Assembly (NCBI GenBank): GCA_017521295.1
Contig: JAFXDF010000036.1
Coordinates: 1,275-65,274, forward strand
Direction of reading: 5' to 3'
DNA length: 64,000 nucleotides
DNA from: Clostridia bacterium
GTDB taxonomy: Bacteria > Bacillota > Clostridia > Oscillospirales > Butyricicoccaceae
Part shown: positions 34,846 to 58,358 of the stretch, in pieces
Numbering within the stretch: position 1 is the first letter of the stretch
Layout: the number at the start of each line of letters is the position of its first letter
Program-made: the position numbers and the translations under genes
Notes under the pieces: generated by a model
What the model was told of the DNA's origin: nothing
What the model saw: the letters and a program-made list of their open reading frames with translations, nothing else
The model's database searches: none

Positions 34846-34891
34846 TGGTACGCCCGACTGGAGTCGAACCAGCGGCCTTTAGAGTCGGAGT
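34846..34891 (-). pseudogene. tRNA-Arg(CCG) 3' half (anticodon loop to CCA), displaced by the element
   Basis: Minus-strand reading is ACTCCGAC-TCTAA-AGGCC-GCTGG-TTCGACT-CCAGT-CGGGCGT-A-CCA. It complements the 5' half at 58320-58358. Confidence 0.8.
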
Positions 34892-35018
34892 TATCAGGCG
34901 GGAAACGAAAAAGCCTGTATTTGCAAAGCTTTCGTCAGTTGTGCACAGATTTGAAGATGATAACGAGAAACCCGCAAACCGTTGCAGCGCAACAGTTTGC
35001 GGGTGTTTTGCTGTTTTT

Positions 35019-35043
35019 AAAAAATAGTAGTCAGATAGTAGTC
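35019..35043. repeat. arm-type-like repeat near attL (AAAAAATAGTAGTCAGATAGTAGTC)
   Basis: Contains ATAGTAGTC twice at 11-bp spacing. 23/25 identical to 58207-58231, in the same orientation. Confidence 0.6.
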
Positions 35044-35126
35044 TCAATACTGACAATCAGGTTTAAATTACCATAAAAATCACATCACAAGCTACTTGTC
35101 AACTTCTGAGCGATATATGCTTATTT

Positions 35127-35726
35127 CTATAGGGTCTTGGGTGGATCATCTAAAAGGGTAAATAACTTCTTGTTATATGTATTGGAGTCGACAACAGATA
35201 CAGTGCAATTTAACCATCTTAGCTTTTTCCTCAGACTCACCTGCAAAGACTCCATTTGCATCTTCTTAGTGCGTGTTCTTCCTCCAAAATCACCTTCAAG
35301 AAGTAGAATAATTAGCAGATTCTTCTCTTTTGTTGAAATTCCTTTGTCAACAAGCATATTGGCATAAGGAATAATTGAATTTGCAGCGCCGTTTTCGACA
35401 CCTGTTGTAACAGCACCAATCAAACAAGCTATCGTCATAGCTACCTTTTGAGCGATTTCAATATCAAGGCTGTCACGATCATGGCTATCTTCAGGAGCTA
35501 AATGAGCTTTCTTATTATCAGGATCAATACGCCAACGATTATCTGCTTCATGTCCTTTGCAGTTCTTTATCTCAAGTAACACCAATTGACCTTGATCCTT
35601 ATAGAGGATATCTACGCCTTTAGCTGCCGGAAATGAAACGAAGCACTTCCGATAATATGGTGTATCGTCAAATTTTATTGCGGATCCTTGTGAAAAACAA
35701 AAACCAAAGCCACTTTCCTTAATCAT
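35127..35726 (-). CDS. hypothetical protein with a PD-(D/E)xK-like motif
   Basis: 199 aa. GVDILYKD-x9-LLEIKNCK gives D-x11-E-x-K. Start overlaps the stop of the upstream ATPase ORF. AT-rich. Confidence 0.45.
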   Translation of the reverse strand: MIKESGFGFCFSQGSAIKFDDTPYYRKCFVSFPAAKGVDILYKDQGQLVLLEIKNCKGHEADNRWRIDPDNKKAHLAPEDSHDRDSLDIEIAQKVAMTIACLIGAVTTGVENGAANSIIPYANMLVDKGISTKEKNLLIILLLEGDFGGRTRTKKMQMESLQVSLRKKLRWLNCTVSVVDSNTYNKKLFTLLDDPPKTL

Positions 35727-36606
35727 TGTAAATCAAACGTTGTTCTCTGTCGTATAATGAATCAAACTCTTCCATAACAGCATTATGCTGCAAATCCTGG
35801 ATATCTTTTGCACACTCAAACCCTATTTTGCCATCTTCTTTATACAGTGACAAAAATCTAATGTCCAACTGATCGGGATTGCTTTTAGGATAGGCAGTTA
35901 ACATGTTGAAACTCTGCTGGACAAAATAGTCATGAGTCGTCACGAAAACCTGAACTCCCATTTTGGCAAGTTCCACAATGGCCTTAGTCACATGCTGAAT
36001 CATCTTAGGATTCATGTTTGTTTCAGGCTCGTCCCAGAATAATACAGAGTTCTTGCTAAGACTTCCAGATGAGATTAAATAGATGATGGTTGCCAATTTG
36101 CGATAACCCTCAGAAACCAAGCCCATCTCGAATTCGCCTTCTCCAGGCACTTTTAAATAGAATTTTTTTTCGCGCTGAACAATACTACCTTCAAGAATGT
36201 TTTCAAAACTCGAAAGAACCTGATTCTGCTCGGTCGTGTTTGAGCCACGTTTTAATGGTTTATCTAACAATTTTGTTAAATCATAATATGTCTCTTCAAA
36301 ATCTAAATGATATTCTTCATATAAACTTTGAAAATGTTCCGTAGCAGAAATCATTTCTTTTGGGGGCAAGTAGATAGGATCAAAAGATTGATTAGGAGCA
36401 ATCTTTTTTACTTCCAATTCCACATGGCGTCCACTGCGAGTGCCAAATGCCACGGAAATTTCATCACCTTTTTCTAATTTCATACAAAGATTGGCTCGGT
36501 TGCTTCCTTGTTTGCGGCTGACAAGACGACCTATTTTCATGTCATCTGGTCTGAAAACTCCTGTGATCTTTTCGACAAAAGCAACCTCAAGCTGATCCTT
36601 TGTCAT
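35719..36606 (-). CDS. ABC/AAA_21-type ATPase, C-terminal part (signature-like motif, Walker B, D-loop, H-loop)
   Basis: 295 aa. SEGYRKL signature-like motif, Walker B VLFWDEPETNMNP, and TTHD. No Walker A in this ORF. Confidence 0.7.
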   Translation of the reverse strand: MTKDQLEVAFVEKITGVFRPDDMKIGRLVSRKQGSNRANLCMKLEKGDEISVAFGTRSGRHVELEVKKIAPNQSFDPIYLPPKEMISATEHFQSLYEEYHLDFEETYYDLTKLLDKPLKRGSNTTEQNQVLSSFENILEGSIVQREKKFYLKVPGEGEFEMGLVSEGYRKLATIIYLISSGSLSKNSVLFWDEPETNMNPKMIQHVTKAIVELAKMGVQVFVTTHDYFVQQSFNMLTAYPKSNPDQLDIRFLSLYKEDGKIGFECAKDIQDLQHNAVMEEFDSLYDREQRLIYND

Positions 36607-36776
36607 TTCATTAATATTTTTTTGCTATAAGGCTTTAGCAAGGAATATAGGCATTTTAGAAGGGTTGTCTTTCCGGTGCTGTTTTCTCCAAAAATTACAT
36701 TAATATTTGGAGACCAATCCATGATCATATCATCAAACAGCATGAAATCCTTCAGATGAGTCTGCAGAATTTTCAT
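36603..36776 (-). CDS. ABC/AAA_21-type ATPase, N-terminal Walker A fragment (split gene)
   Basis: MKILQTHLKDF...NVIFGENSTGKTTLLK. The stop TGA overlaps the ATG of the next ORF (ATGA). An A7 run lies 11-17 nt upstream of the junction. An alternative TTG start exists at 36860. Confidence 0.6.
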   Translation of the reverse strand: MKILQTHLKDFMLFDDMIMDWSPNINVIFGENSTGKTTLLKCLYSLLKPYSKKILMK

Positions 36777-36914
36777 TGAATGAACCAGCCTTTCACTTTG
36801 AAATAGAAGATACCTATTTTTCATTTTAACATAGATTAATATAGGCAATAAACGTGACAATTACCTTACTTTTTCTTGTATTGTTTTGGAAGGTAATTAA
36901 ATCTATTATATTTA

Positions 36915-36943
36915 ATTATGTCATCATAGCAATAATGTGTCAA
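36915..36943 (-). promoter_or_regulatory. candidate promoter for the ATPase/nuclease operon
   Basis: Minus-strand TTGACA (36938-36943), 17 nt, CATAAT (36915-36920). Confidence 0.35.
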
Positions 36944-37188
36944 GCCGATTTTGCTTCAGCACACCATCTCATTTTTATAAATTGTGCATAATTTATTTAA
37001 GGGTAACTTTTAATCATAGTTGCAAAATCTGATATAAAGGAAAGCTATAATATGATTTTATAATTATTGTGTCCAATGTATTGACTTTTTACAGGTGCAG
37101 TGCGTTCAAGCAAATAGATTGAATACTTATTTGCAAAATCATTTTGCCGCAGTATAATAAAGAAAATGCAATAAAGTGGAGGCTGGGT

Positions 37189-38376
37189 ATGAGTAAAACA
37201 CGCATCATAAATCAGTATCTTCTTAGCGCAAAAAGTAAAGGCCTCAAACGCCTCTATAGTAATACCGAACAGGCTTATGTTGATCTATGCGCTGTACTCA
37301 AGAAAAAGTATTCAAAATGCGAAGAAGTAGCTGAAGGTTCTGCTTTGAAAATTGAACATACTTTTCACAACGAAACAAAAAACTGTTATTTTGTTTATAA
37401 GAAGTCTAGCTCAATAGCAAGACACTATGTATCTGTTTTCACCTTAGAGACCGGAACTGCAGGCTTAGAGCTTTTGGAAGAGGTTTGCAATACTGTTTTT
37501 AAGACAGATAGTGTGCTGTCAAATTATTATGATATCATTGTTTTGAGAGACGGTATTTCCGAAAAATATAGCAATAAAATATTTCCAAAGTTTAACGAAT
37601 ATGAGCGAAAACTGAAAGCGCTTATGTTCGCTGTCTATACTCAGGAGTATGGTTCTGCGTACATTCAAGTGGTCCAGTCGCATGTCGAGAACTCCATAAA
37701 AGGTGCGCCTAAAAACAAAAAAGAACTTAGCCGTGTTCAAGAAATGTTTTTTGCGCTTACCCTGGGAGATATCCAAAATGTCTTATTTACGCCATATTGG
37801 TCCCCAGCTGATGAAAACTATTATTATGCATTGCTAAACGATAGCTGTGACTATTCCAAGTGTAGCAATGAGGAAATACGACAATTATTTTCAACACTTA
37901 AGCCGAAGTGCGATTGGGATAAATTCTTTGCAAAACTGTTTCGTGAGGAAAACATGCCCGATATAATTGATGAGCTCCGAAATTATCGAAACATAGTTGC
38001 CCATTGCAAGTCTTTTTCAACGGAACAATATATTGCTAGCAGAGAACTTCTGAAAAAAGCTATAAAGCAACTTGATAGAGCATTGAACAGCATTGCACCT
38101 AGGTACCATAAATTGCTGGACAATATAGAAGAAGATGCGCCTTGTGGCAGTGTTTCAATGCTTGGGCAAATATCTCAAGACAAAAGCTCTCATAATTCTG
38201 CGAGATTTGAAGCAATTGCCAGAAGTATTGCAGAGGCAGTCGCAATGTCCAGTAACCATTCCTCTATTGATACAGATATCATTGAACCCTTACGATACAT
38301 ACCACCCAAGCATATAGGAAAAGCGATAAAGCAGCGCGTAAAACCTCATTACCACAGGAAAAGCCTTAAAAAGTAA
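37189..38376 (+). CDS. HEPN-domain protein (Swt1/Apea-like R-x4-H motif)
   Basis: Start at MSKTRI (GTGGAGG RBS, TATAAT at 37153-37158). Motif ELRNYRNIVAHCK with the upstream helix FNEYERKLKALMF. AT-rich. Confidence 0.55.
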   Translation: MSKTRIINQYLLSAKSKGLKRLYSNTEQAYVDLCAVLKKKYSKCEEVAEGSALKIEHTFHNETKNCYFVYKKSSSIARHYVSVFTLETGTAGLELLEEVCNTVFKTDSVLSNYYDIIVLRDGISEKYSNKIFPKFNEYERKLKALMFAVYTQEYGSAYIQVVQSHVENSIKGAPKNKKELSRVQEMFFALTLGDIQNVLFTPYWSPADENYYYALLNDSCDYSKCSNEEIRQLFSTLKPKCDWDKFFAKLFREENMPDIIDELRNYRNIVAHCKSFSTEQYIASRELLKKAIKQLDRALNSIAPRYHKLLDNIEEDAPCGSVSMLGQISQDKSSHNSARFEAIARSIAEAVAMSSNHSSIDTDIIEPLRYIPPKHIGKAIKQRVKPHYHRKSLKK

Positions 38377-38404
38377 TGCAGACAGATTGTCAGGAGCAAG
38401 TACC

Positions 38405-39103
38405 ATGACTTACCGTATTGCCATTGTTGACGACAACCAAGCAGACCGGGAGTTCCTCCACGCTCAGGCGCAGAGCTGGGCGACGCAGAACGACAGCACC
38501 CTGCAGGTCGAACTGTTCGCCTCTGCTGAGGAGTTTCTGTTTCACTATGCCGAGCACAAGGACTATGATATCCTGTTGTTGGACATTGAGATGCCCGGCA
38601 TGGACGGGGTTACCATGGCCCGACGCATCCGGAAAGAAAATGAAACCTTGCAGATCGTGTTCATCACCGGTTACTCCGAATACATCTCCGAGGGCTACGA
38701 GGTAGCGGCGCTCCATTACCTGATGAAACCGGTGAACACCGATAAACTGCATCAGGTGCTGGATCGTGCAGCGGACAAGCTCCAGCGAAACGAACGCTGT
38801 CTGACACTGGAGTTATCCGGCGAAGTGGTGCGCCTGCCCCTGTACCAGATCCGCTGGGCCGAGGTGCGGCAGAACTATCTGACCATCCACGCCAAGGCCG
38901 ATTATACCGTGAAAATGACCCTTTCTGAGTTGGAAAACCGTCTGGATGACCGCTTCTTCCGTGCGGGTCGGTCGTTTATCATCAATCTGACCGAGGTGCG
39001 CTCGGTGACCCGACAGGAGGTTCGCCTGTCCGACGGCACAGTCATCCCGCTGCCCCGAGGCCAGTATGAGCCGTTGAACAGAGCTATTATTTCTCGTGGT
39101 TAG
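38405..39103 (+). CDS. LytTR-family two-component response regulator
   Basis: REC domain (IVDDN, LLLDIEMPGMDG) plus a C-terminal LytTR domain (FFRAGRSFIINL). Confidence 0.85.
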   Translation: MTYRIAIVDDNQADREFLHAQAQSWATQNDSTLQVELFASAEEFLFHYAEHKDYDILLLDIEMPGMDGVTMARRIRKENETLQIVFITGYSEYISEGYEVAALHYLMKPVNTDKLHQVLDRAADKLQRNERCLTLELSGEVVRLPLYQIRWAEVRQNYLTIHAKADYTVKMTLSELENRLDDRFFRAGRSFIINLTEVRSVTRQEVRLSDGTVIPLPRGQYEPLNRAIISRG

Positions 39104-39112
39104 GAGGCTTTT

Positions 39113-39775
39113 ATGAGTATCTTTTCCAAACTCATCGACAAGCGCATCGCGGCCTATCAGCGGGAACTCATCGAGACCCATTACGCCGAGGTGGAGAATA
39201 TGTACCGCCAGATCCGCGGCTGGCGGCATGACTATCGCAACCACATCCAGACCATGAAGGTCCACGCTGCCAACGGCGACATGGAGTCCATCCGCCGCTA
39301 TCTGGACGCACTGGACACCGACCTGAACACGGTGGACACCGTCATCAAAACGGGCAATGCCATGGCTGATGCTATCCTCAACTCCAAGATCTCCCTTGCC
39401 AAAGCCCGCGGCATCGCCGTTCATGCCGACGCCCATATCCCGTTGGCGCTGACCACCTCTGAATTGGATCTGTGCGTCATTCTGGGCAACCTGTTCGACA
39501 ACGCCATCGAGGCCAGCTTGGCTTTGCCGGAGGAGCAGCGGCTGATCCGGGTTTATATGGATATGAAAGGCACACAGCTGTACATCTCCTTTACCAACTT
39601 CACCGCCTCCCAAAAGCAGGCCAAGATCTCCGGGCGGTTCCGCACCACCAAGGGCGAGGGCCACGGCTTCGGTCTGGTGCGCATCGACTCCATTGTGGAG
39701 CGTCTGAACGGTTATCTGAGCCGCAACAGTGAGGACGGCGCTTTCACCACAGAGATTCTTTTGCCACAATCATAG
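39113..39775 (+). CDS. GHKL histidine kinase lacking a transmembrane sensor domain (HPK10/AgrC-type catalytic core only)
   Basis: 220 aa. H-box RHDYRNHIQ, N-box LGNLFDNAIEA, and G-box GEGHGFGL. No hydrophobic N-terminal region. Confidence 0.75.
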   Translation: MSIFSKLIDKRIAAYQRELIETHYAEVENMYRQIRGWRHDYRNHIQTMKVHAANGDMESIRRYLDALDTDLNTVDTVIKTGNAMADAILNSKISLAKARGIAVHADAHIPLALTTSELDLCVILGNLFDNAIEASLALPEEQRLIRVYMDMKGTQLYISFTNFTASQKQAKISGRFRTTKGEGHGFGLVRIDSIVERLNGYLSRNSEDGAFTTEILLPQS

Positions 39776-39830
39776 TGAGTGAGGTACATAGTTTGCAGGT
39801 ATGCCACCATTGTGAAAGGAGCCAGAACAT

Positions 39831-40673
39831 ATGAGTTATCCCGATTATTTATATCATTATACCAGTATCGAGACTTTGGCTTTAATTCTGAACAATCGGA
39901 CAATCTGTTTTAATAACCTGCTTTATGTTGACGATATGGAGGAAGCGGAAACCAACGATCTCGGTTTGTTTGGTAAATACGTGAATATAAGTTGTTGGAC
40001 GGAGACCGATGAGGAATCGATAGCATTATGGAATATGTATACTCCAGATATGCATGGTGTGAGGATCAAGATGCCCGTTTTTCCGTTTAAGAAATATCAT
40101 TACAAAACGGGTCAGTTCCATTTTAAAGAGGATGTTGATACTTATATTAACCAGGAAAAACTGTATACGGAGAACAAAGGCGCTATAATACCAAATCTAC
40201 CTATATTATTTTCTGTTGAGTATACCGATGACACGAGTTTATTGTTTCCTACGATCAGGACGAGCAATTCGCCTGATTCGGTACAACAATTTCTTGAGGC
40301 AAAGAGTTTAGCCGACATACCTAAGCCTATAAATATCTCATATTCTCTACGTGAGTTAGGGAGGTATAAGCGATCGGTCTGGTCTTTCCAAAAAGAGTGG
40401 AGATATCTGGTTTTTTCATCTCCGATGGGGTTGCGCGACTGCGAACCTTTCTCTTTAGAGAAACAACAAGAGATTATAAGAAGATTGGAAAACCGTGAAC
40501 AGAAGGCCCCCTATGAGAGATTTTTCCTCGAAATAGATAATGAGGCATTTATGAAAATGGAAATCCTGTTAGGGCCTAAAATGACAGAAGCTGAAAAGAT
40601 TTTGGTTGTTGCATTGCTTGAAAAACATGGACTTGGGGATCGCTGGAAAGAAAGTGCATTGCGTATTAGATAG
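39831..40673 (+). CDS. DUF2971-family protein
   Basis: 280 aa with N-terminal YLYHYTSIETLALILNN...VDDMEE motif. AAAGGAG RBS. Confidence 0.6.
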   Translation: MSYPDYLYHYTSIETLALILNNRTICFNNLLYVDDMEEAETNDLGLFGKYVNISCWTETDEESIALWNMYTPDMHGVRIKMPVFPFKKYHYKTGQFHFKEDVDTYINQEKLYTENKGAIIPNLPILFSVEYTDDTSLLFPTIRTSNSPDSVQQFLEAKSLADIPKPINISYSLRELGRYKRSVWSFQKEWRYLVFSSPMGLRDCEPFSLEKQQEIIRRLENREQKAPYERFFLEIDNEAFMKMEILLGPKMTEAEKILVVALLEKHGLGDRWKESALRIR

Positions 40674-40707
40674 TAAAAATACTATCTAAACACAGAACAT
40701 TTCCTTG

Positions 40708-40774
40708 AAATATGCAATTCGTCCCCCACAGACGACGATTCGTCCCCGAAATGAATTTTCGGGGACTTTTTATG
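40708..40774 (+). repeat. 67-bp perfect direct repeat, copy A (tandem ATTCGTCCCC motifs plus terminator hairpin)
   Basis: Identical to 42829-42895. ATTCGTCCCC occurs at 40717 and 40738 (21-bp phasing). Hairpin GTCCCCGAAA-TGAAT-TTTCGGGGAC plus T5 at 40742-40771. Confidence 0.9.
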
Positions 40775-40986
40775 CTAAGATATAACAATTAAAATCCAAA
40801 TGAAAACAGCGTTTGTGATATCAGTGGCTACGTAGCAAATGAAACATTTTCAGCAATTAAAAATGACTTAAGGTTGCATCATCGTGTGTTTGGTGGGCTG
40901 CGGTAGAAGAGTAAAGTGAATCACTGGACAAATGTTTTACGAGCAGGTATGATCAAACTACCCACATAGCAGAAAGATGGATTTCC

Positions 40987-41649
40987 TTGATAAAAGCTGT
41001 GATTTTTGATGCGTATGGTACCTTGATCTCCACCGGCACTGGATCGCTGGATGCGACACAAAAGATATTGAATCTGTACAAATCGTCCATTCCTGCAAAA
41101 ACATTCTATGGGGACTGGAAAAAATACCATCGGAAACATATCGATGGGTTGTCGCGTTTTGTACCGGAAGAAATGATTTTCCTGTGGGATTTGGAGGAAC
41201 TATACGAACAATATGGGCTACCGGGAAACGCGGCCGAGGATGTGCAGATCATGCTGGACACCCTGGGCAATCGCACTGCATTTCAAGAAAGCAAAGCGGT
41301 GGTGGAACAGCTGAAGCGTTTGGTCACCGTATGCATTGGCTCTACCACCGACACAGAACCGTTTATGCGGGATCTGACCCGGAGCGGCATCGTGGTGGAT
41401 CATATCTTTACTTCAGAGGAGCTACAGGCATACAAGCCACAAAAAGCCTTTTACGAAAAGATCCTTGCAGCTCTGTCCCTGCCACCGGAGGAAGTCCTTT
41501 TTGTGGGAGATTCCCTGACTGACGATGTCTATGGTCCCCGGCAGGTGGGAATGAAAACCTGCTGGGTAAACCGCAAAAAGGAAATTGCCCCGATACCGCC
41601 GCCGGATTATGAGGTGTCCAATCTGACCGAGTTGCTGACTGTTTTATAG
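40987..41649 (+). CDS. HAD-superfamily hydrolase (haloacid dehalogenase type II-like)
   Basis: 220 aa with a TTG start. Motif I is FDAYGTL and motif IV is VGDSLTDD. Confidence 0.75.
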   Translation: MIKAVIFDAYGTLISTGTGSLDATQKILNLYKSSIPAKTFYGDWKKYHRKHIDGLSRFVPEEMIFLWDLEELYEQYGLPGNAAEDVQIMLDTLGNRTAFQESKAVVEQLKRLVTVCIGSTTDTEPFMRDLTRSGIVVDHIFTSEELQAYKPQKAFYEKILAALSLPPEEVLFVGDSLTDDVYGPRQVGMKTCWVNRKKEIAPIPPPDYEVSNLTELLTVL

Positions 41650-41676
41650 GATCATCGAAAGTTGGAGGATTGAAAT

Positions 41677-42168
41677 ATGAGCACCCGCATCGAAAAGACC
41701 AACTATTATCTGGATATTGCAGAAGTTGTAGCTGCCCGTTGCACCTGCTTACGGAGGCATTACGGTGCAGTTATCGTAAAGAATGACGAAATTATTTCCA
41801 CTGGCTATGTGGGTGCGCCCCGAGGCCGAGCCAACTGCATCGACCTGGGTTTCTGCCGTCGGGAGAAGCTGGGCATTGCCCGAGGTGAGCGGTACGAGCT
41901 GTGTCGCAGCGTTCATGCAGAGGCCAACGCCATCATCAGCGCTTCCCGCCGAGATATGATGGATAGTACGCTGTATCTGGTTGGTAAGGAAGCCGGTACT
42001 GGCGAGTATGTGAAGGATGCCAACAGTTGTGCTATGTGCAAGCGAATGATCATCAATGCAGGCATCAGCCGGGTGGTTATCCGTGATGATAAGGAAAACT
42101 GGCGTGAAATTACCGTTTCTGATTGGGTCGAGAATGATGACTCCATGACTGATGTGATGGGTTATTGA
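41677..42168 (+). CDS. dCMP deaminase (ComEB/cytidine-deoxycytidylate deaminase family)
   Basis: 163 aa with zinc motifs HAEANAI and CAMCKRMI. Confidence 0.85.
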   Translation: MSTRIEKTNYYLDIAEVVAARCTCLRRHYGAVIVKNDEIISTGYVGAPRGRANCIDLGFCRREKLGIARGERYELCRSVHAEANAIISASRRDMMDSTLYLVGKEAGTGEYVKDANSCAMCKRMIINAGISRVVIRDDKENWREITVSDWVENDDSMTDVMGY

Positions 42169-42191
42169 ACTTGATATAAAGAGGAAAGCGT

Positions 42192-49738: not shown

Positions 49739-49744
49739 GTAATT

Positions 49745-50075: not shown

Positions 50076-50429
50076 CGCAAAAAGGGCTTTGCGACCATGA
50101 AGCGAACCGCTCCGTGCATTGGATAACTTCATAAAACTCCACCGAATAACGACCTCTCTGTATGATCGGGAAACCGATGAGCCAGGTCGGAGGGGGCGCC
50201 AAGACTCCGTTACGCAGGCGACGGACGAGCGACAACCACCAACTCCGAGCAATCCGGACAGTTCCCGGAGGCGGCGACGACAGCAGAGAGCAGAGACTCC
50301 CCACTAGCCACAGTCCGAGCGTGATAACAACCGTCGCAGGCAATGGGGTGAGAGGCTTCGTAAGTCAATCGGAGATTGCAAAATGAGCGCCGACCAACTA
50401 TCGGCGGTTCGATGGAGAAAACCTTACGA

Positions 50430-50458
50430 AGACTTCCAAGGGAGAAGTCTATCTTTTT
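50430..50458 (+). promoter_or_regulatory. attenuator-like hairpin plus T-run just upstream of the rep-like gene RBS
   Basis: AGACTTC-CAAGGGA-GAAGTCT followed by ATCTTTTTA. AGGAGG at 50484-50489. Confidence 0.35.
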
Positions 50459-50498
50459 ATCAAAAATTCTATGGAAGAAAACCAGGAGGACAAATCTA

Positions 50499-52244
50499 TT
50501 GACCAAATTACAAGAAAACATTTACGCACCCAACTACAAAGTGGAAGATGGCTGTCTGGTGGAAGTGCGCAGCAATCGCCAAGGGCCGTATGACCAAAAG
50601 TTGTGCAATTTTTTGCCCTGGCTGGTCAGCGAAATCGCGGTGGACAACGGTATGGAAAAGACTACTCGAATCGTGCTCTCCGGTGTTCATGCTGACGGTC
50701 ACACCCTGCCTGAAGTGGAGATCCCCGCCTCGGAGTTCGCCGGTTTCGGCTGGCTGTTCAAATACTGGGGCATGGACTGCAATCTGGAAACAGCTCACGG
50801 CGTAAAAGACAGTCTGCGGTACGCCATCCAGAGTACCGCACCCAACGCTGAGCATCGATCGGTGTATGAAGTCACCGGCTGGCATGATGATAACGGAAGC
50901 TGGCAGTTCCTGATGCCGGGGGATGACGCGCAGTCCGTTGTGCTTCCCAGCAATATGAAAGGCTATCACATGGAGCACCGGTGTGATGAAGCAGATATCG
51001 CCTCGGCACTGGCGCTAATGGAAGCAGATCTGGCGCCTGCTGAAATCATCTGGCCCATGCTGGCCTTCACCTTTCTCTCTCCGCTGAATCATTTTCTTCG
51101 GCTGGCTGGATGTGAGCCAAAGTTTGTACTGTTTCTGGTAGGAAAAACCGGAAGTCGCAAAAGTACATTAGCAGCATTGTTCCTTTCCTTCTTCGGAATG
51201 TTTAATGGAGCAAATCTGCCGCTGTCCTTCCGCGATACTGCCAACAGTGTCCTGCATCATACGTTTACCTTGAAAGACGTACTTACTTGCATCGACGACT
51301 TTCATCCTACCGGCCGAAAGGAAACCACAAGTATGAATGCCATGGCGCAGGCTATCATGCGTGCCTACGGTGATCGCACCGGCAGAGGCCGTCTGCGCGC
51401 CGATGCATCACCTATGGAATCGCTGCCGCCCCAAGGCAATGCCATCATCACTGCCGAGTTCCCGCCGGACATTGGTGAAAGCGGAACCGCCCGCTATTTT
51501 GCGCTGGAGCTGATGGAAGGCGATGTGGATCTGGAAGTGCTGACAGCCTTTCAAAAGCAGGCCGAGAGCGGCGTGCTCCAGCGATGTATGTACGGCTATC
51601 TGGAATGGCTGAAAGAAACCTATCTCTGGAATGTGGATGGTTTCCTTGCTGATTTGAAAACACAGTTCGAATATTGGCGGGACATCTTCCGCCAACAGTG
51701 TCCCAACTGCCATGGGCGTGTGCCGGAAGCGGTGGCATGGCTGGTGATCGGAATGCGCTATCTGTTGTCTTATCTGCAAGACCAGTTGGAATTGGCAGAA
51801 GCGGAGTGTGAAAGTTACCGTCAGCGATTCTACTCCATTCTGAAAATGCTGGCAGAGCGACAGGCATCCAACATCGTGCAGGACAAGCCTACCCATAAGT
51901 TTTTGCAGAAGCTGTACGCACTGTTGGAGAGCGGGCAGAACTGTCTGCTGCCGCGGCACGCAGTACATGAGTATCTGCCGCCCAACTGTCTTGGCTATGA
52001 AGATGATACTTACCTCTATCTGTTCAGCGAGATTGCGCTGGAGGCCGTACAGGAGTTGTGTGACAGGCAGGGTGAGGCATTCAACATCAAAAACAAGGAG
52101 TTGCTGAAACAGTTAGCACAGGAAGGTGTGCTGGAGCCTGCAGGTAAGCAGAACACCAAGTCCATCCGCTTTGATGGTAAGAGCAAGCGGGTGGCCTGTT
52201 TATATAAAAGGAGGACCGAGCAGATCCGTGATCTGGCTTCGTAA
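50499..52244 (+). CDS. P-loop NTPase of the DUF927 / SF3-helicase (primase-helicase) type, putative element replication protein
   Basis: Walker A GKTGSRKST and Walker B LTCIDDF. Preferred start is TTG at 50499, 9 nt after AGGAGG. Alternative in-frame starts exist at 50412 and 50376. Confidence 0.55.
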   Translation: MTKLQENIYAPNYKVEDGCLVEVRSNRQGPYDQKLCNFLPWLVSEIAVDNGMEKTTRIVLSGVHADGHTLPEVEIPASEFAGFGWLFKYWGMDCNLETAHGVKDSLRYAIQSTAPNAEHRSVYEVTGWHDDNGSWQFLMPGDDAQSVVLPSNMKGYHMEHRCDEADIASALALMEADLAPAEIIWPMLAFTFLSPLNHFLRLAGCEPKFVLFLVGKTGSRKSTLAALFLSFFGMFNGANLPLSFRDTANSVLHHTFTLKDVLTCIDDFHPTGRKETTSMNAMAQAIMRAYGDRTGRGRLRADASPMESLPPQGNAIITAEFPPDIGESGTARYFALELMEGDVDLEVLTAFQKQAESGVLQRCMYGYLEWLKETYLWNVDGFLADLKTQFEYWRDIFRQQCPNCHGRVPEAVAWLVIGMRYLLSYLQDQLELAEAECESYRQRFYSILKMLAERQASNIVQDKPTHKFLQKLYALLESGQNCLLPRHAVHEYLPPNCLGYEDDTYLYLFSEIALEAVQELCDRQGEAFNIKNKELLKQLAQEGVLEPAGKQNTKSIRFDGKSKRVACLYKRRTEQIRDLAS

Positions 52245-52383
52245 AACCATGTGTGGCGGGTGTGGTAACGGCGCAAAATAGGCGATTTGTGGCGGCAAAG
52301 TGTCCTGCGGGAATGTGCTCGAAACCCTTGCAAACAGCGGAACACGGGCGGTTTTTGCGCCAACGACAGCGGCCTGTGTGCCT

Positions 52384-52476
52384 GCATCTGCTGTGCGTCT
52401 GCAATGCCGCTTTTGTGCATCTGATCGGGCATCTGCAAACCCCTTGCAACGACTGCACTTTTGCCCTCTGCATCTG
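52384..52476. repeat. iteron-like cluster of GCATCTG motifs
   Basis: GCATCTG at 52384, 52417, 52429 and 52470, plus the variant GCGTCTG at 52395. TGCATCTGAT occurs twice. Confidence 0.4.
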
Positions 52477-52655
52477 ATGCCACACGTAAAGCACAGTGGA
52501 TTACCCCTTTGGGGGTGACAAGTTTCGCCTTTGTGGTACGGAATCGGGGCGATTGCCCCGTTCCGCCCACTTTGGCAGTTGCGGGCTAAGCCCACACCCC
52601 TACAAGCTGCGTGCACTTCTGCTGAAGTGCAAAAACCGCCTGCGGCTTCGCAGCT

Positions 52656-52679
52656 TCAAAGGGGGACCAGTCCCCCTTT
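52656..52679. repeat. perfect 10-bp inverted repeat (oriT hairpin candidate) upstream of mobC
   Basis: CAAAGGGGGA-CCAG-TCCCCCTTTG. Confidence 0.4.
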
Positions 52680-52737
52680 GAGGAACCCCCAGCTCTCCGA
52701 GGGGATAAAAATATTTTAATGAAATGGAGGAAACAAA

Positions 52738-53049
52738 ATGGCAAAAGATAATTTCATCCGTCTGCGTGTTGCAGGCTGGGAGAAAGACTACATCCAGCAC
52801 AAAGCAGCAAGTGCAGATATGACACTCTCTGAGTTCGTCCGCAGGGCGGCGATGCATCAGAAAGTAAACGTACTCAGTGGCACTGACGAAGAAGTGTTGC
52901 AGGAGCTTCGACGCCAGGGCAACAATTTAAATCAGCTGACCGTCATGGCGCGGCAGGGTCGTATTCAGTTCGTCAACTTCGAACCCTTCATGGAGGTGTA
53001 TGAAAAAACATGGCAAGCGTTAAATTCGTCGGTGTCTCGTGTAGTCTGA
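52738..53049 (+). CDS. mobC: MobC-family relaxosome accessory protein
   Basis: 103 aa with motif IRLRV...E...I...A....MTLSEFVRRAA and NLNQL. Confidence 0.8.
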   Translation: MAKDNFIRLRVAGWEKDYIQHKAASADMTLSEFVRRAAMHQKVNVLSGTDEEVLQELRRQGNNLNQLTVMARQGRIQFVNFEPFMEVYEKTWQALNSSVSRVV

Positions 53050-53987
53050 AAGACATCATGGACTACATCACCAACCGTGAGAAAACAACTGACAGCCTTG
53101 TCACCGGTGTCAATTGTGTAGCCCAGTCTGCGCTTTATGAATTTGAAACGGTGAAAAAGAAGTTCCACAAAACCGACGGACGCAGCTACTACCATATCGT
53201 GCAGGCGTTCTCACCTGATGATAAATTGGATTTCGACACCGCCCATGAGATCGGGCTGAAGTTCGCTCAGCAGTTCGGTGGTTACCAGTGTCTGGTAGCC
53301 ACCCACATGAATACCAAGCACATCCACAACCACATTGTGATGAACTCGGTGAACTACGAAACCGGCAAAAAGTTTCACCAGACTGCGCGGGAACTCAAGC
53401 AGGTGAAAGACTATTCCAACGAACTCTGTATGCAGTACGGATTGTCCGTTACGGAATCCAAAGCCGACCCGTTCCGCATTCCCACATGGAAGAAAAAACT
53501 GCAAAAGGATATTCGCCAAGCCATGGAAAACTCTCGAACGAAAAAGGAGTTCATCGAATACATGGAATGGTTCGGCTATGGCGTGGACTGGCAGAGCGAT
53601 ACCAAGTACATCACCTATACTACGCCCAACAATCTCAAATGCCGTGATAAAAAGCTGTTTGACCAGACGCTTCGTCGGGAGAACATGGAACTCTACTTCG
53701 CCATGGGTGGCTGCGCATATCTGGAAAGCCGTGAAGAGGCGACACCTTATGGTGAACAGCTCCCCACGGTGGATGACGCTGTCAGCGGTCTGGTTGCCAT
53801 CTTCGATGCACTGGCTGTCGGTGACAACAACCGTTTCCATATGGAGACCGTCCATCACAGCGAAGAAGAGATCGAGCGCATCCTACGCCACGGCGGTAAG
53901 ATCGACCGCACAGTCGAATACGCCGTCGATGATGAGGATGAAGAATATCAACAGTACCATGGCTTCGGCATGACCATGATGATGTGA
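53010..53987 (+). CDS. relaxase/mobilization nuclease (MobA/VirD2 family)
   Basis: 325 aa. YYHIVQAFSP and the histidine triad HMNTKHIHNHIVMNSV. Overlaps the end of mobC. Confidence 0.8.
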   Translation: MASVKFVGVSCSLKDIMDYITNREKTTDSLVTGVNCVAQSALYEFETVKKKFHKTDGRSYYHIVQAFSPDDKLDFDTAHEIGLKFAQQFGGYQCLVATHMNTKHIHNHIVMNSVNYETGKKFHQTARELKQVKDYSNELCMQYGLSVTESKADPFRIPTWKKKLQKDIRQAMENSRTKKEFIEYMEWFGYGVDWQSDTKYITYTTPNNLKCRDKKLFDQTLRRENMELYFAMGGCAYLESREEATPYGEQLPTVDDAVSGLVAIFDALAVGDNNRFHMETVHHSEEEIERILRHGGKIDRTVEYAVDDEDEEYQQYHGFGMTMMM

Positions 53988-53999
53988 GAAAGGAGAACA

Positions 54000-55166
54000 A
54001 TGGCAAGTATCAAAACCATCCATGAACGCAAATACAAAATCACCGTCAGCAACGGATACCATGCTGACGGCAGAAAGATCAGTCGGGCAAAAACCATCAC
54101 GGTCCCCGACCATGTACGCGAAAAAAGCATTCCCCAGTATGTGGCTCATGCTGCGGAAGAGTTTGAACGGGAAGTGAAACTGGGATACTCGGAGGACGGC
54201 GAGTTATCATTTGAAGAATATGCTGAGCGCTGGCTGGCGCGGCAGACCAAATATGCGCCCAGTACACTGGCCAGTTATCGGCGGATGCTGGCGCAGACCT
54301 ATCCTCATATCGGACAGATCAAGCTCAACCGCCTGCGACCCATCGCTCTGGAGAATATGCTGATGGAGTTGCGCAAGCGCACCCATCATGGCAAAACGGT
54401 GCAGGAAGCCACCGTGCAGAAATATCTGACGGTGGTCTCCGCCGTCCTTAGTGATGCCAAACGCAACGAGATCATTCAGAAGAACCCTGCCCGCATGATC
54501 GACCTGCCCGCAACCGAAAAGGCCAATCAGCAGATCCCGACGCCCGAAGAAGCCAAGCGGCTGCTTGAGATCCTGACCAATGAACCCGAGGAATATAAAC
54601 TATTCTATGCACTGGCCATTTACACCGGCTGCCGCCGTGGAGAACTGTGCGCCCTCCGCTGGTCGGACTTCACCTGCATTGGCTATGACGGCATTCTGAC
54701 CGTACAGCATTCTCGCAGCTCTGTTTTGGGACAGGGAATTGCGGAGGGTACTACAAAAAATGGGAAGGCACGCACAATCTATTTGTATGACGATATGATG
54801 AGTCTGCTCCGCGGCTACGGTCATTACAAACTGGAAGAAGCAAAACAGAACAAGCACCGGTTCAGTGAGTACCTGTTTGTCAACACCGACGGTACGCATA
54901 TGCATCCCGACACCTTCACCAAGCGCCTGCGTAAAATCTATGACCACAACGGATTCTCCAAACGTTTTCACCTGCACACCCTGCGGCATTATTTTGTCTC
55001 CACCATGCTGCATAGCGGCGTAGACAAACAGACGGTAGCGGATCTGGCCGGTCACGGCGACACTTCTTTTCTGGAACGCACCTACTGTCATCCGCAGATG
55101 GCACTCAAAGAGCAGGCCGCGAAAAAGATGTTTTCGTCCATGTTGGAAGAAGCTATCACAGGATAA
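54000..55166 (+). CDS. tyrosine-type site-specific integrase 1
   Basis: 388 aa. RRGELCALRW, HTLRHYF, and the LAGH...Y catalytic motifs. Confidence 0.85.
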   Translation: MASIKTIHERKYKITVSNGYHADGRKISRAKTITVPDHVREKSIPQYVAHAAEEFEREVKLGYSEDGELSFEEYAERWLARQTKYAPSTLASYRRMLAQTYPHIGQIKLNRLRPIALENMLMELRKRTHHGKTVQEATVQKYLTVVSAVLSDAKRNEIIQKNPARMIDLPATEKANQQIPTPEEAKRLLEILTNEPEEYKLFYALAIYTGCRRGELCALRWSDFTCIGYDGILTVQHSRSSVLGQGIAEGTTKNGKARTIYLYDDMMSLLRGYGHYKLEEAKQNKHRFSEYLFVNTDGTHMHPDTFTKRLRKIYDHNGFSKRFHLHTLRHYFVSTMLHSGVDKQTVADLAGHGDTSFLERTYCHPQMALKEQAAKKMFSSMLEEAITG

Positions 55167-55289
55167 TTGTTGCTTTGGTAGAACTTGAGCCCACGCCCAT
55201 TCTTTCAGTAGCTTTCTCGCCGTCTTTCGAGTATATTGTGTTTACAAAACCGGCCTCAGTAGTACTGAGGTTAGAAGGAGAGAACACAT

Positions 55290-56465
55290 ATGGCAAGTAT
55301 CCGAAAGCGTGGCGACAGCTATCTGATCATCGTATCCATGGGATATGACTACAATGGCAACCGCCGCAAAGCACAGCAGAAGACCGTCCATCCCCCAGCA
55401 TCGCTGACACCCAAGCAGAAAGAAAAATGGCTGAACGAACAGGCAGTCCTGTTCGAAATGGCCTGCAAGAAAGCAGGTCAGCAGGTCAACACAGGCATTA
55501 CACTGGCACAGTATATCGAACTTTGGCTGCAAGAGGTCGCACCCAACAAACTGGCCAAATCCACCATCACCCGTGAAAAGCAGGACATCGCACGCATCCT
55601 GCCTCATCTGGGAAACAGCAAACTCACCAAACTCCGCCCCGAGCACTTCCGAAAGCTGTATGCCGATTTGCGGAAAGAAAAGAATACGGTAACGGGAAAG
55701 CCGCTCTCCGAAAACACCGTTGCGGGAGTCCACGCATGTCTGTGCGGGATCCTCAGCGATGCTATGGAGGGCGGCTTTCTGGATCACAACCCCGCATGGC
55801 GTACCTATCGCTACACAGGAAAGAAAAAGGATAAAATCATTACCGATGAAGATACGGTGCAGAAACTGGTCACGGCGCTGGAACAGGAAAGCATCAAGTA
55901 TGAAACCTACTTCAAACTGGTGATTGCTACGGGCATGCGGCGGGGCGAGTGCTGTGGCCTAAAATGGTCGGATGTCGACTGGCAGGAACGGAGTATCCAC
56001 ATCCAGCGTAATGTGGTAAAAGTCACCGGCGAGGACATCATCGTAAAAGACACCAAGACCTCATCGGGCGACCGATACGTATACTTCTCTGCTGAGATGG
56101 AGAGCCTTCTACGGGAGTATCGACGGGAGTGCGAATGGGAAACCGAAGCCCACGACGAGCGAAGCCTGGCCGAAGATGATTATGTATTCCGTCGTCATGG
56201 ACAGCCATTACCCATGACACCCACCACCTTCACATGGCGCTTCAAACTGATTCTGAAGAAGCATGGCCTGCCTGAAAAGCTGAATGTGCATTCACTGCGA
56301 CATACCAACGCCAGCCTGCTGATTGCCAACGGCACCGATGTGGCAACAGTGGCTGGCCTGTTGGGACACTCGCAGCCGTCCACCACACTGGATATCTACA
56401 CCCACGCCTTCGATAAGAACAAAAAGGCTGCAAGCGCAGCGCTGCATGATGGACTGGAGATTTGA
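55290..56465 (+). CDS. tyrosine-type site-specific integrase 2
   Basis: 391 aa. RRGECCGLKW, HSLRHT, and LLGHS....IYTH. Confidence 0.85.
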   Translation: MASIRKRGDSYLIIVSMGYDYNGNRRKAQQKTVHPPASLTPKQKEKWLNEQAVLFEMACKKAGQQVNTGITLAQYIELWLQEVAPNKLAKSTITREKQDIARILPHLGNSKLTKLRPEHFRKLYADLRKEKNTVTGKPLSENTVAGVHACLCGILSDAMEGGFLDHNPAWRTYRYTGKKKDKIITDEDTVQKLVTALEQESIKYETYFKLVIATGMRRGECCGLKWSDVDWQERSIHIQRNVVKVTGEDIIVKDTKTSSGDRYVYFSAEMESLLREYRRECEWETEAHDERSLAEDDYVFRRHGQPLPMTPTTFTWRFKLILKKHGLPEKLNVHSLRHTNASLLIANGTDVATVAGLLGHSQPSTTLDIYTHAFDKNKKAASAALHDGLEI

Positions 56466-56534
56466 GTGTTGACAAATCCAGGCATGGAACATAGAATTAT
56501 ACTTACCAACATAATATAGAAAGAGGGTGATGCA

Positions 56535-56690
56535 ATGACCGACTACACCACGCTTGCACACGCATTCGAACTTGCAGGACATGTCGTGGGTATTTTCGCA
56601 CTGATGCAAAGATGCAAAGGAGAAGCCGGCATTGCTTCCGAAGCGCCGCAACGCATTGCATTGACTGGAATGGCCAACCAGCCTTTCTGA
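56535..56690 (+). CDS. small hypothetical ORF (51 aa)
   Basis: ATG after an AGAGGGTGA RBS-like sequence, followed by the terminator at 56725-56753. No recognisable motif. Confidence 0.25.
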   Translation: MTDYTTLAHAFELAGHVVGIFALMQRCKGEAGIASEAPQRIALTGMANQPF

Positions 56691-56724
56691 ATATTGTTGG
56701 CAGAGACACAGTCTCTTTAGCCGG

Positions 56725-56753
56725 GACGCGCTCTATTTGAGCGCGTCTTTGTT
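56725..56753 (+). terminator. intrinsic terminator
   Basis: GACGCGCTC-TATTT-GAGCGCGTC followed by TTTGTT. Confidence 0.5.
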
Positions 56754-56880
56754 CGTAGTTGACTCATTCAAGCGGTTGCGTAAGGCATCACATTTTTTGC
56801 AAAATAACGAGCAATTGGCTCTAACAATATACCGCAGCTAAAACAAATAGAACGCTGGCACAGTCATCTGTACCAGCGCT

Positions 56881-57246
56881 CTATTTGTTTTCATCCTTCG
56901 ATGCTTCTGTCGTTTCAGTCTCATTATTTTTCTGTTTCGTAGTTGCTATGTTATCTTTAGAAGATTCATTTAACAAGTTTTTCAAGGAATCACACACTTT
57001 AGTAAAATACTTAGCAATTGGCTCAAGCAGAATACCGCTTAGATATTGAGCTTGGGGAACAAATTCTGCAGCGAAGTTAATTGTTAGAGCAATTACGCCA
57101 TAACCCAGAAGTAAATATAATACTTTCGTAACACCTTTCCAAAAAACCTGCTTATTGAATCCCTCTTTCCAGGTGCCATATCCAGTTCCAATTATTTGAT
57201 TAACCACCATTAAGGCTATTAAGACACCGATCAACTTAAAACTCAT
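56881..57246 (-). CDS. holin-like small membrane protein
   Basis: 121 aa with 3 TM helices and a charged, polar C-terminal tail. AT-rich. Confidence 0.4.
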   Translation of the reverse strand: MSFKLIGVLIALMVVNQIIGTGYGTWKEGFNKQVFWKGVTKVLYLLLGYGVIALTINFAAEFVPQAQYLSGILLEPIAKYFTKVCDSLKNLLNESSKDNIATTKQKNNETETTEASKDENK

Positions 57247-57435
57247 AGACTATGAAACACCTCCTCTCTTTGGGATGGCTATTTTATATGGCATTATTAT
57301 AAAACTTTTCTATGTATAATGCAAATGGATTGTCAAGTTACCTAAATCAATAAAAACCACCAAAAACATTTCGTTTCTGGTGGTTTTAGGTGCATCTATC
57401 TAGTTAAACCAGCAATTTTTAGCGCCGGAGAATTA

Positions 57436-58041
57436 TTACAGTTCTTCAGCCTTGAAAGTGGTATAACCCTCATAATAGTAGCTGTGGTCGATGCCTTTCA
57501 TATACATTTCACGGCTGTTGATTTCATCGGTAAGCGCATTTTTCAGGATATGCTTGATCTCTGTATCACGGATCGGGCTGCGTTCCATGGCCAGAAGATA
57601 GTCCTCTTTATCCACACGGCTCCAGTCGATCACTTGATGCAGCTCGGCTTTCAACATCAGATCCAACCAGATGCGGGTGCTGCGTCCGTTGCCTTCGCGG
57701 AAAGGGTGAGCCACGTTCATCTCGACGTACTTTTCGATGATTTCATCGAACGTGGACTGTGGCATTTTTTCAATGTTTGCAAGTGCCGCTTCCAAATACA
57801 TCACCGAAGCAAAGCGGAAGTTTCCTTTGGCCATGTTAACGGTACGAAGTTCACCGGCAAAGTCGTAAATATCCTCAAAGAGGTATTTATGGATGAATTG
57901 CAGAGACGAGAAGGTTCCGGCCTCCAACTCATTCAGGATACCCTTCTCAAAAAGCTCGACAGCCTTCTTTTTGCTGATTTTCTCTTCTTCACGGGCGAGA
58001 GCGGTGGAGGATGTGATTCCCAATTTATTCTCAATTGTCAT
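57436..58041 (-). CDS. fic: class III Fic-family protein (adenylyltransferase type)
   Basis: Start at MTIENK (AGGAGG RBS). Fic motif HPFREGNGRSTR. C-terminal inhibitory-helix motif S-Y-Y-Y-E-G. Confidence 0.85.
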   Translation of the reverse strand: MTIENKLGITSSTALAREEEKISKKKAVELFEKGILNELEAGTFSSLQFIHKYLFEDIYDFAGELRTVNMAKGNFRFASVMYLEAALANIEKMPQSTFDEIIEKYVEMNVAHPFREGNGRSTRIWLDLMLKAELHQVIDWSRVDKEDYLLAMERSPIRDTEIKHILKNALTDEINSREMYMKGIDHSYYYEGYTTFKAEEL

Positions 58042-58061
58042 GGAAAAACCTCCTTTATCTG

Positions 58062-58100
58062 AATGAAAACAAAAGGCACTTGCTTTCGCAAGTGCCTTTT
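58062..58100 (-). terminator. intrinsic terminator after the element-borne tRNA-Arg
   Basis: AAAAGGCACTTGC-GAAA-GCAAGTGCCTTTT followed by GTTTTC on the minus strand. Confidence 0.6.
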
Positions 58101-58102
58101 GT

Positions 58103-58179
58103 TGGTACGCCCGACTGGAGTCGAACCAGCGGCCTACAGAGTCGGAGTCTGTCACTCTATCCAACTGAGCTACGGGCGC
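58103..58179 (-). tRNA. tRNA-Arg (anticodon CCG), intact, element-borne
   Basis: Hand-folded 77-nt cloverleaf: GCGCCCG-TA-GCTC..GAGT-G-ACAGA-CTCCGAC-TCTGT-AGGCC-GCTGG-TTCGACT-CCAGT-CGGGCGT-A-CCA. Confidence 0.85.
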
Positions 58180-58206
58180 GTATTCACTTGCGGGAAAACT
58201 GCTTCG

Positions 58207-58231
58207 AAAAAATAGTGGTCAAATAGTAGTC
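58207..58231. repeat. arm-type-like repeat near attR (AAAAAATAGTGGTCAAATAGTAGTC)
   Basis: 23/25 identical to 35019-35043. Confidence 0.6.
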
Positions 58232-58319
58232 AACTACTACGCTGTTCTGGAGTGTCACCGGCGGCAACACCAGTGATTGCAAGGCTTTGCGGAATAGCTC
58301 TACCGGATAGGCCTGAAAC

Positions 58320-58358
58320 GTCGGAGTCTAACGCTCTATCCAACTGAGCTACGGGCGC
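58320..58358 (-). pseudogene. tRNA-Arg(CCG) 5' half (acceptor to anticodon loop), truncated by the element
   Basis: Minus-strand reading is GCGCCCGTAGCTCAGTTGGATAGAGCG-TTAGA-CTCCGAC. The sequence then diverges into non-tRNA sequence. Confidence 0.8.

Follow-up and report, generated by a model that had tools for sequence, protein, structure and literature searches.

The 64,000-nt stretch analysed here, positions 1,275 to 65,274 of contig JAFXDF010000036.1 from a Clostridia bacterium (assembly GCA_017521295.1; hereafter the window), contains an integrative mobilizable element (IME) that is bordered on each side by one half of a host tRNA-Arg(CCG) gene and carries a complete tRNA-Arg(CCG) of its own close to its right end. 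The host is an Oscillospiraceae-like bacterium of the ruminant gut. The GC content of the element is 47%, compared with 55-60% in the flanks. The tRNA halves, the putative attachment sites and the sequences around the two ends are arranged as follows.

34846..34891, minus strand: orphan 3' half of the host tRNA-Arg(CCG), with loop, stem TCTAA, variable loop, T arm, acceptor and CCA
34884..34891, unstranded: left 8-bp crossover core GTCGGAGT (anticodon-loop sequence), where similarity to the empty sites stops exactly
34892..58319, unstranded: integrative mobilizable element, 23,428 bp, from empty-site breakpoints, gene content and GC
34892..34899, plus strand: left core-type arm TATCAGGC, an imperfect inverted repeat with 58311-58319
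35024..35044, plus strand: P' arm, with the arm-type repeats ATAGTAGTCA / ATAGTAGTCT in tandem (period 11 bp)
58068..58103, minus strand: perfect 16-bp hairpin right after the element tRNA, terminator-like
58103..58179, minus strand: complete element tRNA-Arg(CCG) with anticodon stem ACAGA/TCTGT (ARAGORN; Rfam, 65 bits)
58180..58319, minus strand: 140-bp spacer, P arm of the element attachment site attP, conserved in 24 unique spacer variants
58212..58232, same orientation as the repeats at the left end: tandem arm-type repeats in the spacer (P arm)
58311..58319: right core-type arm GCCTGAAAC, the end of the 140-bp spacer
58320..58327, unstranded: right 8-bp core GTCGGAGT, inside the orphan 5' half
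58320..58358, minus strand: orphan 5' half of the host tRNA-Arg(CCG), with acceptor, D arm, stem TTAGA and loop, including the right core
58380..58408, minus strand: host tRNA promoter TTTACA-17 nt (TG)-TATAAT, 11/12 consensus matches

Read on the minus strand, 58358->58320 gives GCGCCCGTAGCTCAGTTGGATAGAGCGTTAGACTCCGAC (39 nt, comprising acceptor strand, D arm, stem TTAGA and loop), and 34891->34846 gives ACTCCGACTCTAAAGGCCGCTGGTTCGACTCCAGTCGGGCGTACCA, 46 nt of perfect tRNA sequence. When the halves were merged in silico via their common ACTCCGAC, ARAGORN recognised a 77-nt tRNA-Arg(ccg) with a full cloverleaf, which bears out the proposal of an earlier sequence-only reading that the joined halves are a tRNA; the coordinates and strings which that reading had given for halves, core and ends all agreed with the sequence when reread. 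It had also suggested a tRNA scan of the window. Here ARAGORN called solely the intact tRNA-Arg(ccg) at 58103-58179 (minus strand) and a tRNA-Ala at 63813-63888, leaving the halves unscored, and neither ARAGORN nor Rfam reported a tRNA at either junction, so that the junction halves are true fragments. TTAGA and TCTAA, the two orphan stems, are complementary and neither pairs with the ACAGA/TCTGT of the intact copy; therefore the two halves belong together. Three copies of the core GTCGGAGT are present in the 64 kb, two at the junctions (34884 and 58320) and one within the intact tRNA (58141). Directly beyond the core, element sequence follows at each end, with CCTGAAAC leading up to the core on one side and the core running into TATCAGG on the other. 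Both junctions are thus half genes and, as the sequence-only reading had stated, the target gene is left unrebuilt with a complete cognate tRNA residing on the element.

The insertion could be delimited by comparison with empty sites, which were sought by scanning metagenomes with the junction-spanning central 37-mer of the joined tRNA. Exact matches with an intact tRNA of the joined type were obtained in at least 120 metagenome contigs. BLAST of contigs against the window showed that two of the recovered contigs, L215 and L152, are syntenic with it on both sides, and their intact tRNA is identical to the whole joined-halves sequence. In L215, window positions 32640-34891 (chloramphenicol acetyltransferase (CAT), a Card1-like gene, the terminator of the tRNA gene and its 3' half) continue directly into 58320-58412 (5' half and promoter region), 8 bp being common to both alignment blocks; at base level the left junction follows L215 up to 34891 and the right junction from 58320 onwards. 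Since the alignment with L215 and L152 breaks exactly at the core, the element spans 34892-58319 (23,428 bp). This empty-site comparison, which the sequence-only reading had called for, upholds its claim of a site-specific insertion into the anticodon loop with the 8-bp core as the sole shared sequence, and it shows that the host attachment site attB overlaps the tRNA-Arg(CCG) gene.

The same comparison bears on the more familiar alternative of a conventional tRNA-regenerating island, in which the intact copy would be a hybrid gene formed at the junction, and the surplus 5' half would have arisen later by duplication on the spot. Such an island would likewise have an intact tRNA near its right end and a 3' fragment at its left end, and GGCCTGAAAC by the core is faintly similar to the tRNA's GGCCTTTAGA. 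However, on either side it is the orphan half to which the empty sites align, with breakpoints at 34891 and 58320 instead of at the intact tRNA, the orphan TTAGA finds its partner in the orphan TCTAA and not in the intact copy, and 24 spacer variants show the 140-bp spacer, arm-type sites included, to be a conserved component of the element, so we regard a regenerating island as highly improbable. An assembly chimera, or mis-join at the repeated tRNA sequence, deserves mention because tRNA sequences are common to several species and break metagenome assemblies. Nevertheless, several assemblies made independently from different samples contain identical junctions, as do Logan contigs of additional runs, single Logan contigs span 58156-58349 and 34862-35000, and relatives with isolate or closed genomes have this layout too. 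As independent assemblies as well as single Logan contigs cross each junction, mis-assembly is ruled out for all practical purposes, and its remaining probability is negligible.

The sequences next to the cores have the properties of recombinase binding sites. The sequence-only reading had pointed to imperfect inverted repeats around the core, and these are kept across relatives as GCCTGAAAY ... TMTCAGGC, the left arm appearing as TMTCAGGC at the left ends of the relatives L223, L115 and L169. Exact matches to ATAGTNGTCA occur three times in the window, every one at the element ends and in the same orientation; within the element, the tandem copies of ATAGTNGTCA are found 88-108 bp from its right end and 133-153 bp from its left end. 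Arm-type repeats consequently flank the reconstructed attP on both sides, and this combination of core sites and arm sites is the classical lambda-type attP architecture. Two intact tyrosine integrases adjoin the att sites, with their core-type inverted repeats and arm-type repeats, and the breakpoints sit at the 8-bp core, an arrangement compatible with recombination by these enzymes. In the proposed mechanism, attP (GCCTGAAAC-GTCGGAGT-TATCAGGC with paired arm-type sites) would recombine site-specifically with the anticodon loop of tRNA-Arg(CCG). Since the 8-bp core is all that attP and attB have in common, the tRNA is rebuilt at neither junction. The best explanation of the locus, which we consider likely, is therefore that a mobilizable element split the host tRNA-Arg(CCG) by recombination between its attP and the anticodon loop and supplies a complete replacement tRNA.

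The genes of the element were annotated with Pfam, NCBIfam and PADLOC, and 24 element open reading frames (ORFs) were scanned.

35127..36860, minus strand: candidate defence pair HEC-02 (Pfam, PADLOC), DUF6661 at 35127-35726 plus an AAA_15/21 ATPase in two ORFs, 35719-36606 and 36603-36860
37144..49672, plus strand: cargo block (Pfam, PADLOC)
50376..52244, plus strand: 622-aa protein with a weak DUF927 (primase/helicase-like) match below the curated cutoff
52738..53049, plus strand: NikA-like/MobC accessory protein of the mobilization module (52738..53987)
53010..53987, plus strand: MobA/VirD2-type relaxase (PF03432) of the same mobilization module
54000..55166, plus strand: tyrosine integrase Int1, 388 aa (PF00589)
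55290..56465, plus strand: tyrosine integrase Int2, 391 aa (PF00589)
57436..58044, minus strand: Fic-type protein adenylyltransferase (cargo)

Int1 and Int2 are 30% identical to one another, both show the RRGE, HxLRH and C-terminal H/Y motifs in the alignment, and their nearest solved structures are XerA and Tn1549 Int. Both integrases, the relaxase and the NikA-like protein are full-length. Among the scanned ORFs no capsid, tail, terminase, lysis or repressor domain was detected, nor any match to VirB4, a type IV coupling protein (T4CP) or another type IV secretion system (T4SS) component, and no oriT was located. The presence of a relaxase and a NikA-like protein without virion, lysis or mating-pore genes identifies an IME and not a prophage, in line with its own integrase module, attL and attR junctions set against an empty site, and a relaxase unaccompanied by T4SS genes in the ORFs scanned. 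The 622-aa DUF927-like protein may belong to a replication or maintenance module. The cargo block encodes a HEPN protein, a LytTR response regulator with a GHKL kinase, DUF2971, HAD and cytidine/dCMP deaminase proteins, and furthermore NUDIX, two ABC ATPase/permease fusions, an M24 peptidase and Abi_alpha (PDC-S47); overall, the cargo consists mostly of candidate defence genes (HEC-02, PDC-S47/Abi_alpha, HEPN). The HEC-02 ATPase is split in the same manner in all four independent contigs checked (L011-L014), which makes the split either a real frameshift/pseudogene or a programmed feature. Within the cargo block, a 75-nt direct repeat (97% identical, 40708-40782 and 42829-42903) holds the perfect hairpin GTCCCCGAAATGAATTTTCGGGGAC; one copy precedes the HAD-deaminase genes and the other the NUDIX-ABC genes, and the repeat is possibly a shared regulatory leader.

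How the replacement tRNA could be expressed is suggested by its position. It has the orientation of the broken host gene and a distance of 140 bp to the core. The host promoter is directed across the spacer towards this tRNA, and 21 nt separate the end of the promoter's -10 hexamer from the orphan 5' half downstream. No promoter-like or terminator-like site was seen between the host promoter and the element tRNA. Both promoter hexamers are also visible in the sequence of L215 (plus strand TGTAAA and ATTATA), and the relatives L220 and L186, from other hosts, have a promoter ahead of the orphan half as well, whereas their spacer has none, L186 showing a hairpin after the tRNA too. Two metatranscriptomes yielded assembled RNA over 58207-58360 with contigs beginning near the host promoter at 58380-58408, depth being zero at 58386-58700 and 57900-58088. 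Thus the host promoter probably drives a precursor of orphan half, spacer and element tRNA, a view that is supported but not proven. Transcription from the intact host promoter would cross both orphan 5' half and spacer and continue into the element tRNA, the normal tRNA-processing enzymes would release the mature tRNA from this precursor, and integration would in this way switch on expression of the replacement tRNA so that decoding of CGG is kept. Moreover, the seven distinct element tRNAs found in the family retain 21 of 21 stem pairs, with compensatory differences at 2:72, 6:68, 28:44 and 29:43, indicating that the element tRNAs are under selection to fold.

The arrangement is shared by a family of at least 50 loci, counted as fetched contig loci, with Dysosmobacter welbionis among them. 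In the 50 fetched loci an orphan 5' half ending in ACTCCGAC is followed by RTTTCAGG and then by a complete tRNA-Arg(CCG), which begins exactly 169, 179 or 191 nt past the orphan start. The orphan halves fall into 12 types, and their differences in acceptor, D-loop and anticodon stems indicate different hosts; the spacers, unlike the orphan halves, are conserved, arm-type repeats included. Orthologues of Int1 (62-65% identical) and Int2 (73-76% identical) lie side by side and adjoin these tRNAs in the relatives, and the relaxase and NikA genes are found beside them too where the contig extends that far. Int2 alone has 2706 homologues at E<=1e-20, forming >100 clusters at >=77% identity, some of them on 113-277 contigs and named from Dysosmobacter welbionis. 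Loci anchored on Int2, and hence independent of the tRNA pattern, show the order Int1, Int2, small ORF, tRNA, spacer, core and orphan half. In relatives, the same element or an identical Int2 stands beside different host flanks and orphan types, which argues for recent movement there. Because it brings an entire tRNA and not just a 3' segment that matches the host gene, such an element could enter any host with the same tRNA-Arg(CCG) anticodon loop, and its own tRNA would thereby become a landing site for further family members.

Nested loci agree with this expectation. In L223 (11534) the element tRNA itself is split by the left end of a second member, the core being followed by TATCAGGC; L228, L231, L232 and L235 (11725-11925) hold stacks of two orphan halves, each with a spacer after it; and L115 (10383) and L169 have a displaced 3' half beside Int2. 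The split tRNA of L223 and the stacked orphan halves show that members of the family do use the element tRNA as a target, giving nested arrays, and these arrays always terminate in one intact tRNA copy. The sequence-only reading had drawn attention to the different anticodon stem of the element copy, but this is not a family rule, as several relatives share the stem between orphan and element tRNA. An altered stem as protection against self-targeting was likewise rejected on account of these identical stems and of the element tRNAs hit by other members.

Further observations were made on individual relatives. Orphan halves have decayed in some of them, with multiple substitutions in L213 and a core mutated to GTCGGAGC in L230 (11725), and such decay could eventually lock an element in. 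L202 (5260-5520) contains an attP-like junction in which GGCCTGATA, ACTCCGAC and ATTTCAGGC follow one another directly, then spacer and full tRNA, with no integrase within 5 kb; it is either a tandem-array joint or an excised or rearranged form. In L229, from 11498, the element tRNA ends 2 nt before its 3' terminus and the diverging stretch carries three serine-recombinase genes. Other tandem tyrosine-integrase pairs, ~27% identical to Int1/Int2, occur in L120 (12530-14676), L150 (1959-4102) and L160 (9513-11656), on contigs that also hold this tRNA, and paired integrases may be common in these genomes.

Whether the host needs the element tRNA depends on its other decoders of CGG. In the host flank genes, arginine is encoded most often by this codon (45% of arginine codons, 21.5 per 1000 codons), and a CGG decoder therefore matters to the host. 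The element tRNA might still be a dispensable passenger if the genome had another decoder, a second tRNA-Arg(CCG) or a tRNA-Arg(UCG); the 64-kb view of the genome holds just two tRNA genes, and the phage Daredevil integrates without reconstituting the tRNA and without a cognate tRNA, though with clear plaques (PMC10865867). Against such a passenger stand the complete tRNA that every family member seen has retained at a constant distance from its end, the preserved stem pairs with their compensatory changes, the single intact tRNA with which nested arrays always close, and the frequency of CGG. Selection on a needed gene would leave exactly this pattern, and we consider the passenger explanation possible but doubtful. 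Both halves and both cores are perfect, so that precise excision would regenerate the host gene, which renders doubtful the 'addiction-like' stabilisation that the sequence-only reading had raised. The arrangement penalises only integrants that lack the tRNA, imprecise deletions and a loss confined to the element tRNA, and is not post-segregational killing.

Several results weigh against a mobile element whose replacement tRNA is driven by the host promoter. No excisionase was recognised among the small ORFs beside Int2. Exact-protein look-ups of the flank genes for DegV, the symporter and the Card1-like protein did not find a same-species empty site, all contigs that reach the site being occupied, and a scan of genome collections with the flank Na/Ala symporter gave best matches of 79% identity without tRNA synteny and no empty site. 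In the Logan data an intact TTAGA-type tRNA is present in the same metagenomes, on contigs too short to link attB to the flanks of this species. The RNA data are assembled contigs that do not record the strand, and the metagenomes hold related variants. Finally, no attP circle was found for this element, and the degenerate attP junction is absent from IMG/VR viral contigs.

The occupied sites and the missing attP junction, together with a similar depth of junction and flank in four metagenomes and the split of one cargo gene, would also be expected if the element were fixed and immobile in this species, its att sites and integrases being relics of one ancient event. We judge this to be rather unlikely in view of the full-length integrase, relaxase and NikA genes, the orphan halves and cores that are still perfect, the relatives with identical Int2 next to different host flanks and orphan types, and the attP-like junction in L202.

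A more comprehensive reading, tentative as a whole, would combine four parts. First, tRNA replacement would be switched by integration, the promoterless element tRNA being expressed only behind the host promoter. Second, excision would restore the host gene and silence the element copy. Third, each nested arrival would take over the role, so that at any depth of nesting exactly one functional tRNA-Arg(CCG) is made from one host promoter. Fourth, Int1 and Int2 would act as a heteromer, in which one integrase recognises half-sites of the attP type (GCCTGAWA) and its partner those that the anticodon stem provides in attB. A division of labour between Int1 and Int2 is speculation; if true, it would explain why attP and attB share just the 8-bp overlap.

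The regions flanking the element show features of their own. Just outside the left junction lies a 276-bp direct duplication (34507-34845), in which a 63-nt block with the tRNA terminator occurs twice (34507-34569 and 34783-34845), and between the block copies a 22-nt fragment (34709-34732) is identical to the tRNA from T-loop to 3' end. This fragment was considered as a part of the element and rejected, because the empty-site relative L215 also has it; it was thus there before the element and may have been left by an earlier island that targeted the T-loop. Farther out, at 32612-34428, the CAT gene adjoins the gene with a Card1-like endonuclease domain, both being kept in L215. On the right side, the Na/Ala symporter gene (58588-59970), located between the tRNA and DegV, is absent from L215 (4437-4469), where DegV directly follows the tRNA promoter region; the closest homologues of the symporter in genome collections are ~79% identical. 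At the right window edge lies tRNA-Ala(GGC) (63813-63888), beyond which the longer contig L016 (15264-20623) continues with genes for another tyrosine integrase and for RepA_N, NikA-like and HTH proteins, a second mobilizable element at a neighbouring tRNA.

These findings add to the actinobacteriophages a further kind of carrier of tRNA-dependent integration, namely conjugatively mobilizable elements in Clostridia that are abundant in the gut, with relatives in Dysosmobacter welbionis and on hundreds of human and ruminant gut contigs. A rationale suggested for the design is that a self-contained tRNA frees attP from matching the 3' half of the host gene, so that hosts with different acceptor and D stems can be entered, as the 12 orphan types illustrate. 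For genome annotation, island finders keyed on a regenerated tRNA and a displaced fragment will miss or mis-delimit such elements, and tRNA annotation will assign a mobile-element gene to the host. In addition, the compact module of att site, tRNA and integrases could become an integration tool for gut anaerobes that are hard to engineer, a use that Hatfull proposed for mycobacteria.

The sequence-only reading had taken the arrangement to be without precedent, but its principle was published for phages in 2024. 'tRNA-dependent lysogeny' was shown experimentally in actinobacteriophages (Fionnbharth/K4, Cluster L, Gaia and others) and is characterised by a tyrosine integrase, an attB in a tRNA gene, a core of 8-17 bp, a tRNA that is not reconstructed, and a cognate phage tRNA that is required for viable lysogens (Guerrero-Bustamante & Hatfull, mBio 2024; PMC10865867). 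The present element resembles these phages in its tyrosine integrases, the arm-type sites flanking attP, the attB inside a host tRNA gene, the 8-bp core (8 bp in Gaia as well), the lack of a rebuilt functional tRNA, and a carried tRNA with the anticodon of the broken gene (tRNA-Arg(ccg), 58103-58179). In the phages the need for the cognate tRNA in lysogens was demonstrated (PMC10865867), whereas for the present element the likeness is drawn at the level of sequence, where each of these features is found.

The differences are equally clear. In contrast to the phages, the element is mobilizable, with a relaxase and without virion or lysis genes in the ORFs scanned, and has two conserved tandem integrases where the phages have one. 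Unlike in Fionnbharth, whose tRNA lies elsewhere and has its own demonstrated promoter, the tRNA is located within the attP arm, apparently promoterless and behind the host promoter. Furthermore, the tRNA of this family acts as attB for further members, which leads to nested arrays, the host belongs to the Oscillospiraceae and not to the Actinobacteria, and tRNA-Arg(CCG) is the gene that is hit. Prophage Lj965 of Lactobacillus johnsonii is cited in PMC10865867 as a likely non-actinobacterial case, with an unrebuilt tRNA and an encoded cognate tRNA; to the extent of that citation it resembles the present element as a non-reconstituting tRNA integration with a cognate tRNA in Firmicutes, but it is a prophage and not an IME.

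With conventional islands (the sublocation classes of Williams 2002; Islander, PMC4383910) the element shares a tyrosine integrase, crossover in the anticodon loop, the stem as inverted repeat and a displaced tRNA fragment. However, in Islander-type islands a 3' segment in attP regenerates the gene at one junction, whereas both junctions are half genes here. Integrase, relaxase, NikA/MobC and the lack of a mating-pore apparatus are typical of Firmicutes IMEs (Guedon et al. 2017, PMC5704250; Faecalibacterium mobilome, PMC12084326), as are defence or adaptive cargo and nesting, known there as tandem or 'matryoshka' composites (PMC5704250, PMC12084326). A search of the Faecalibacterium mobilome study by term turned up integration at tRNA 3' ends only, and neither anticodon-loop splitting nor a replacement tRNA on the element nor paired integrases (PMC12084326). 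In Tn554 TnpA/TnpB-like and XerC/D-like two-recombinase elements, two different tyrosine recombinases are needed together and each binds one half-site; what the Int1/Int2 pair shows is co-conservation in relatives (62-65% and 73-76% identity). The literature searched yielded no precedent among integrative and conjugative elements (ICEs) or IMEs. Together, these comparisons place the element of the window as a non-phage variant of the published principle of tRNA-dependent integration.

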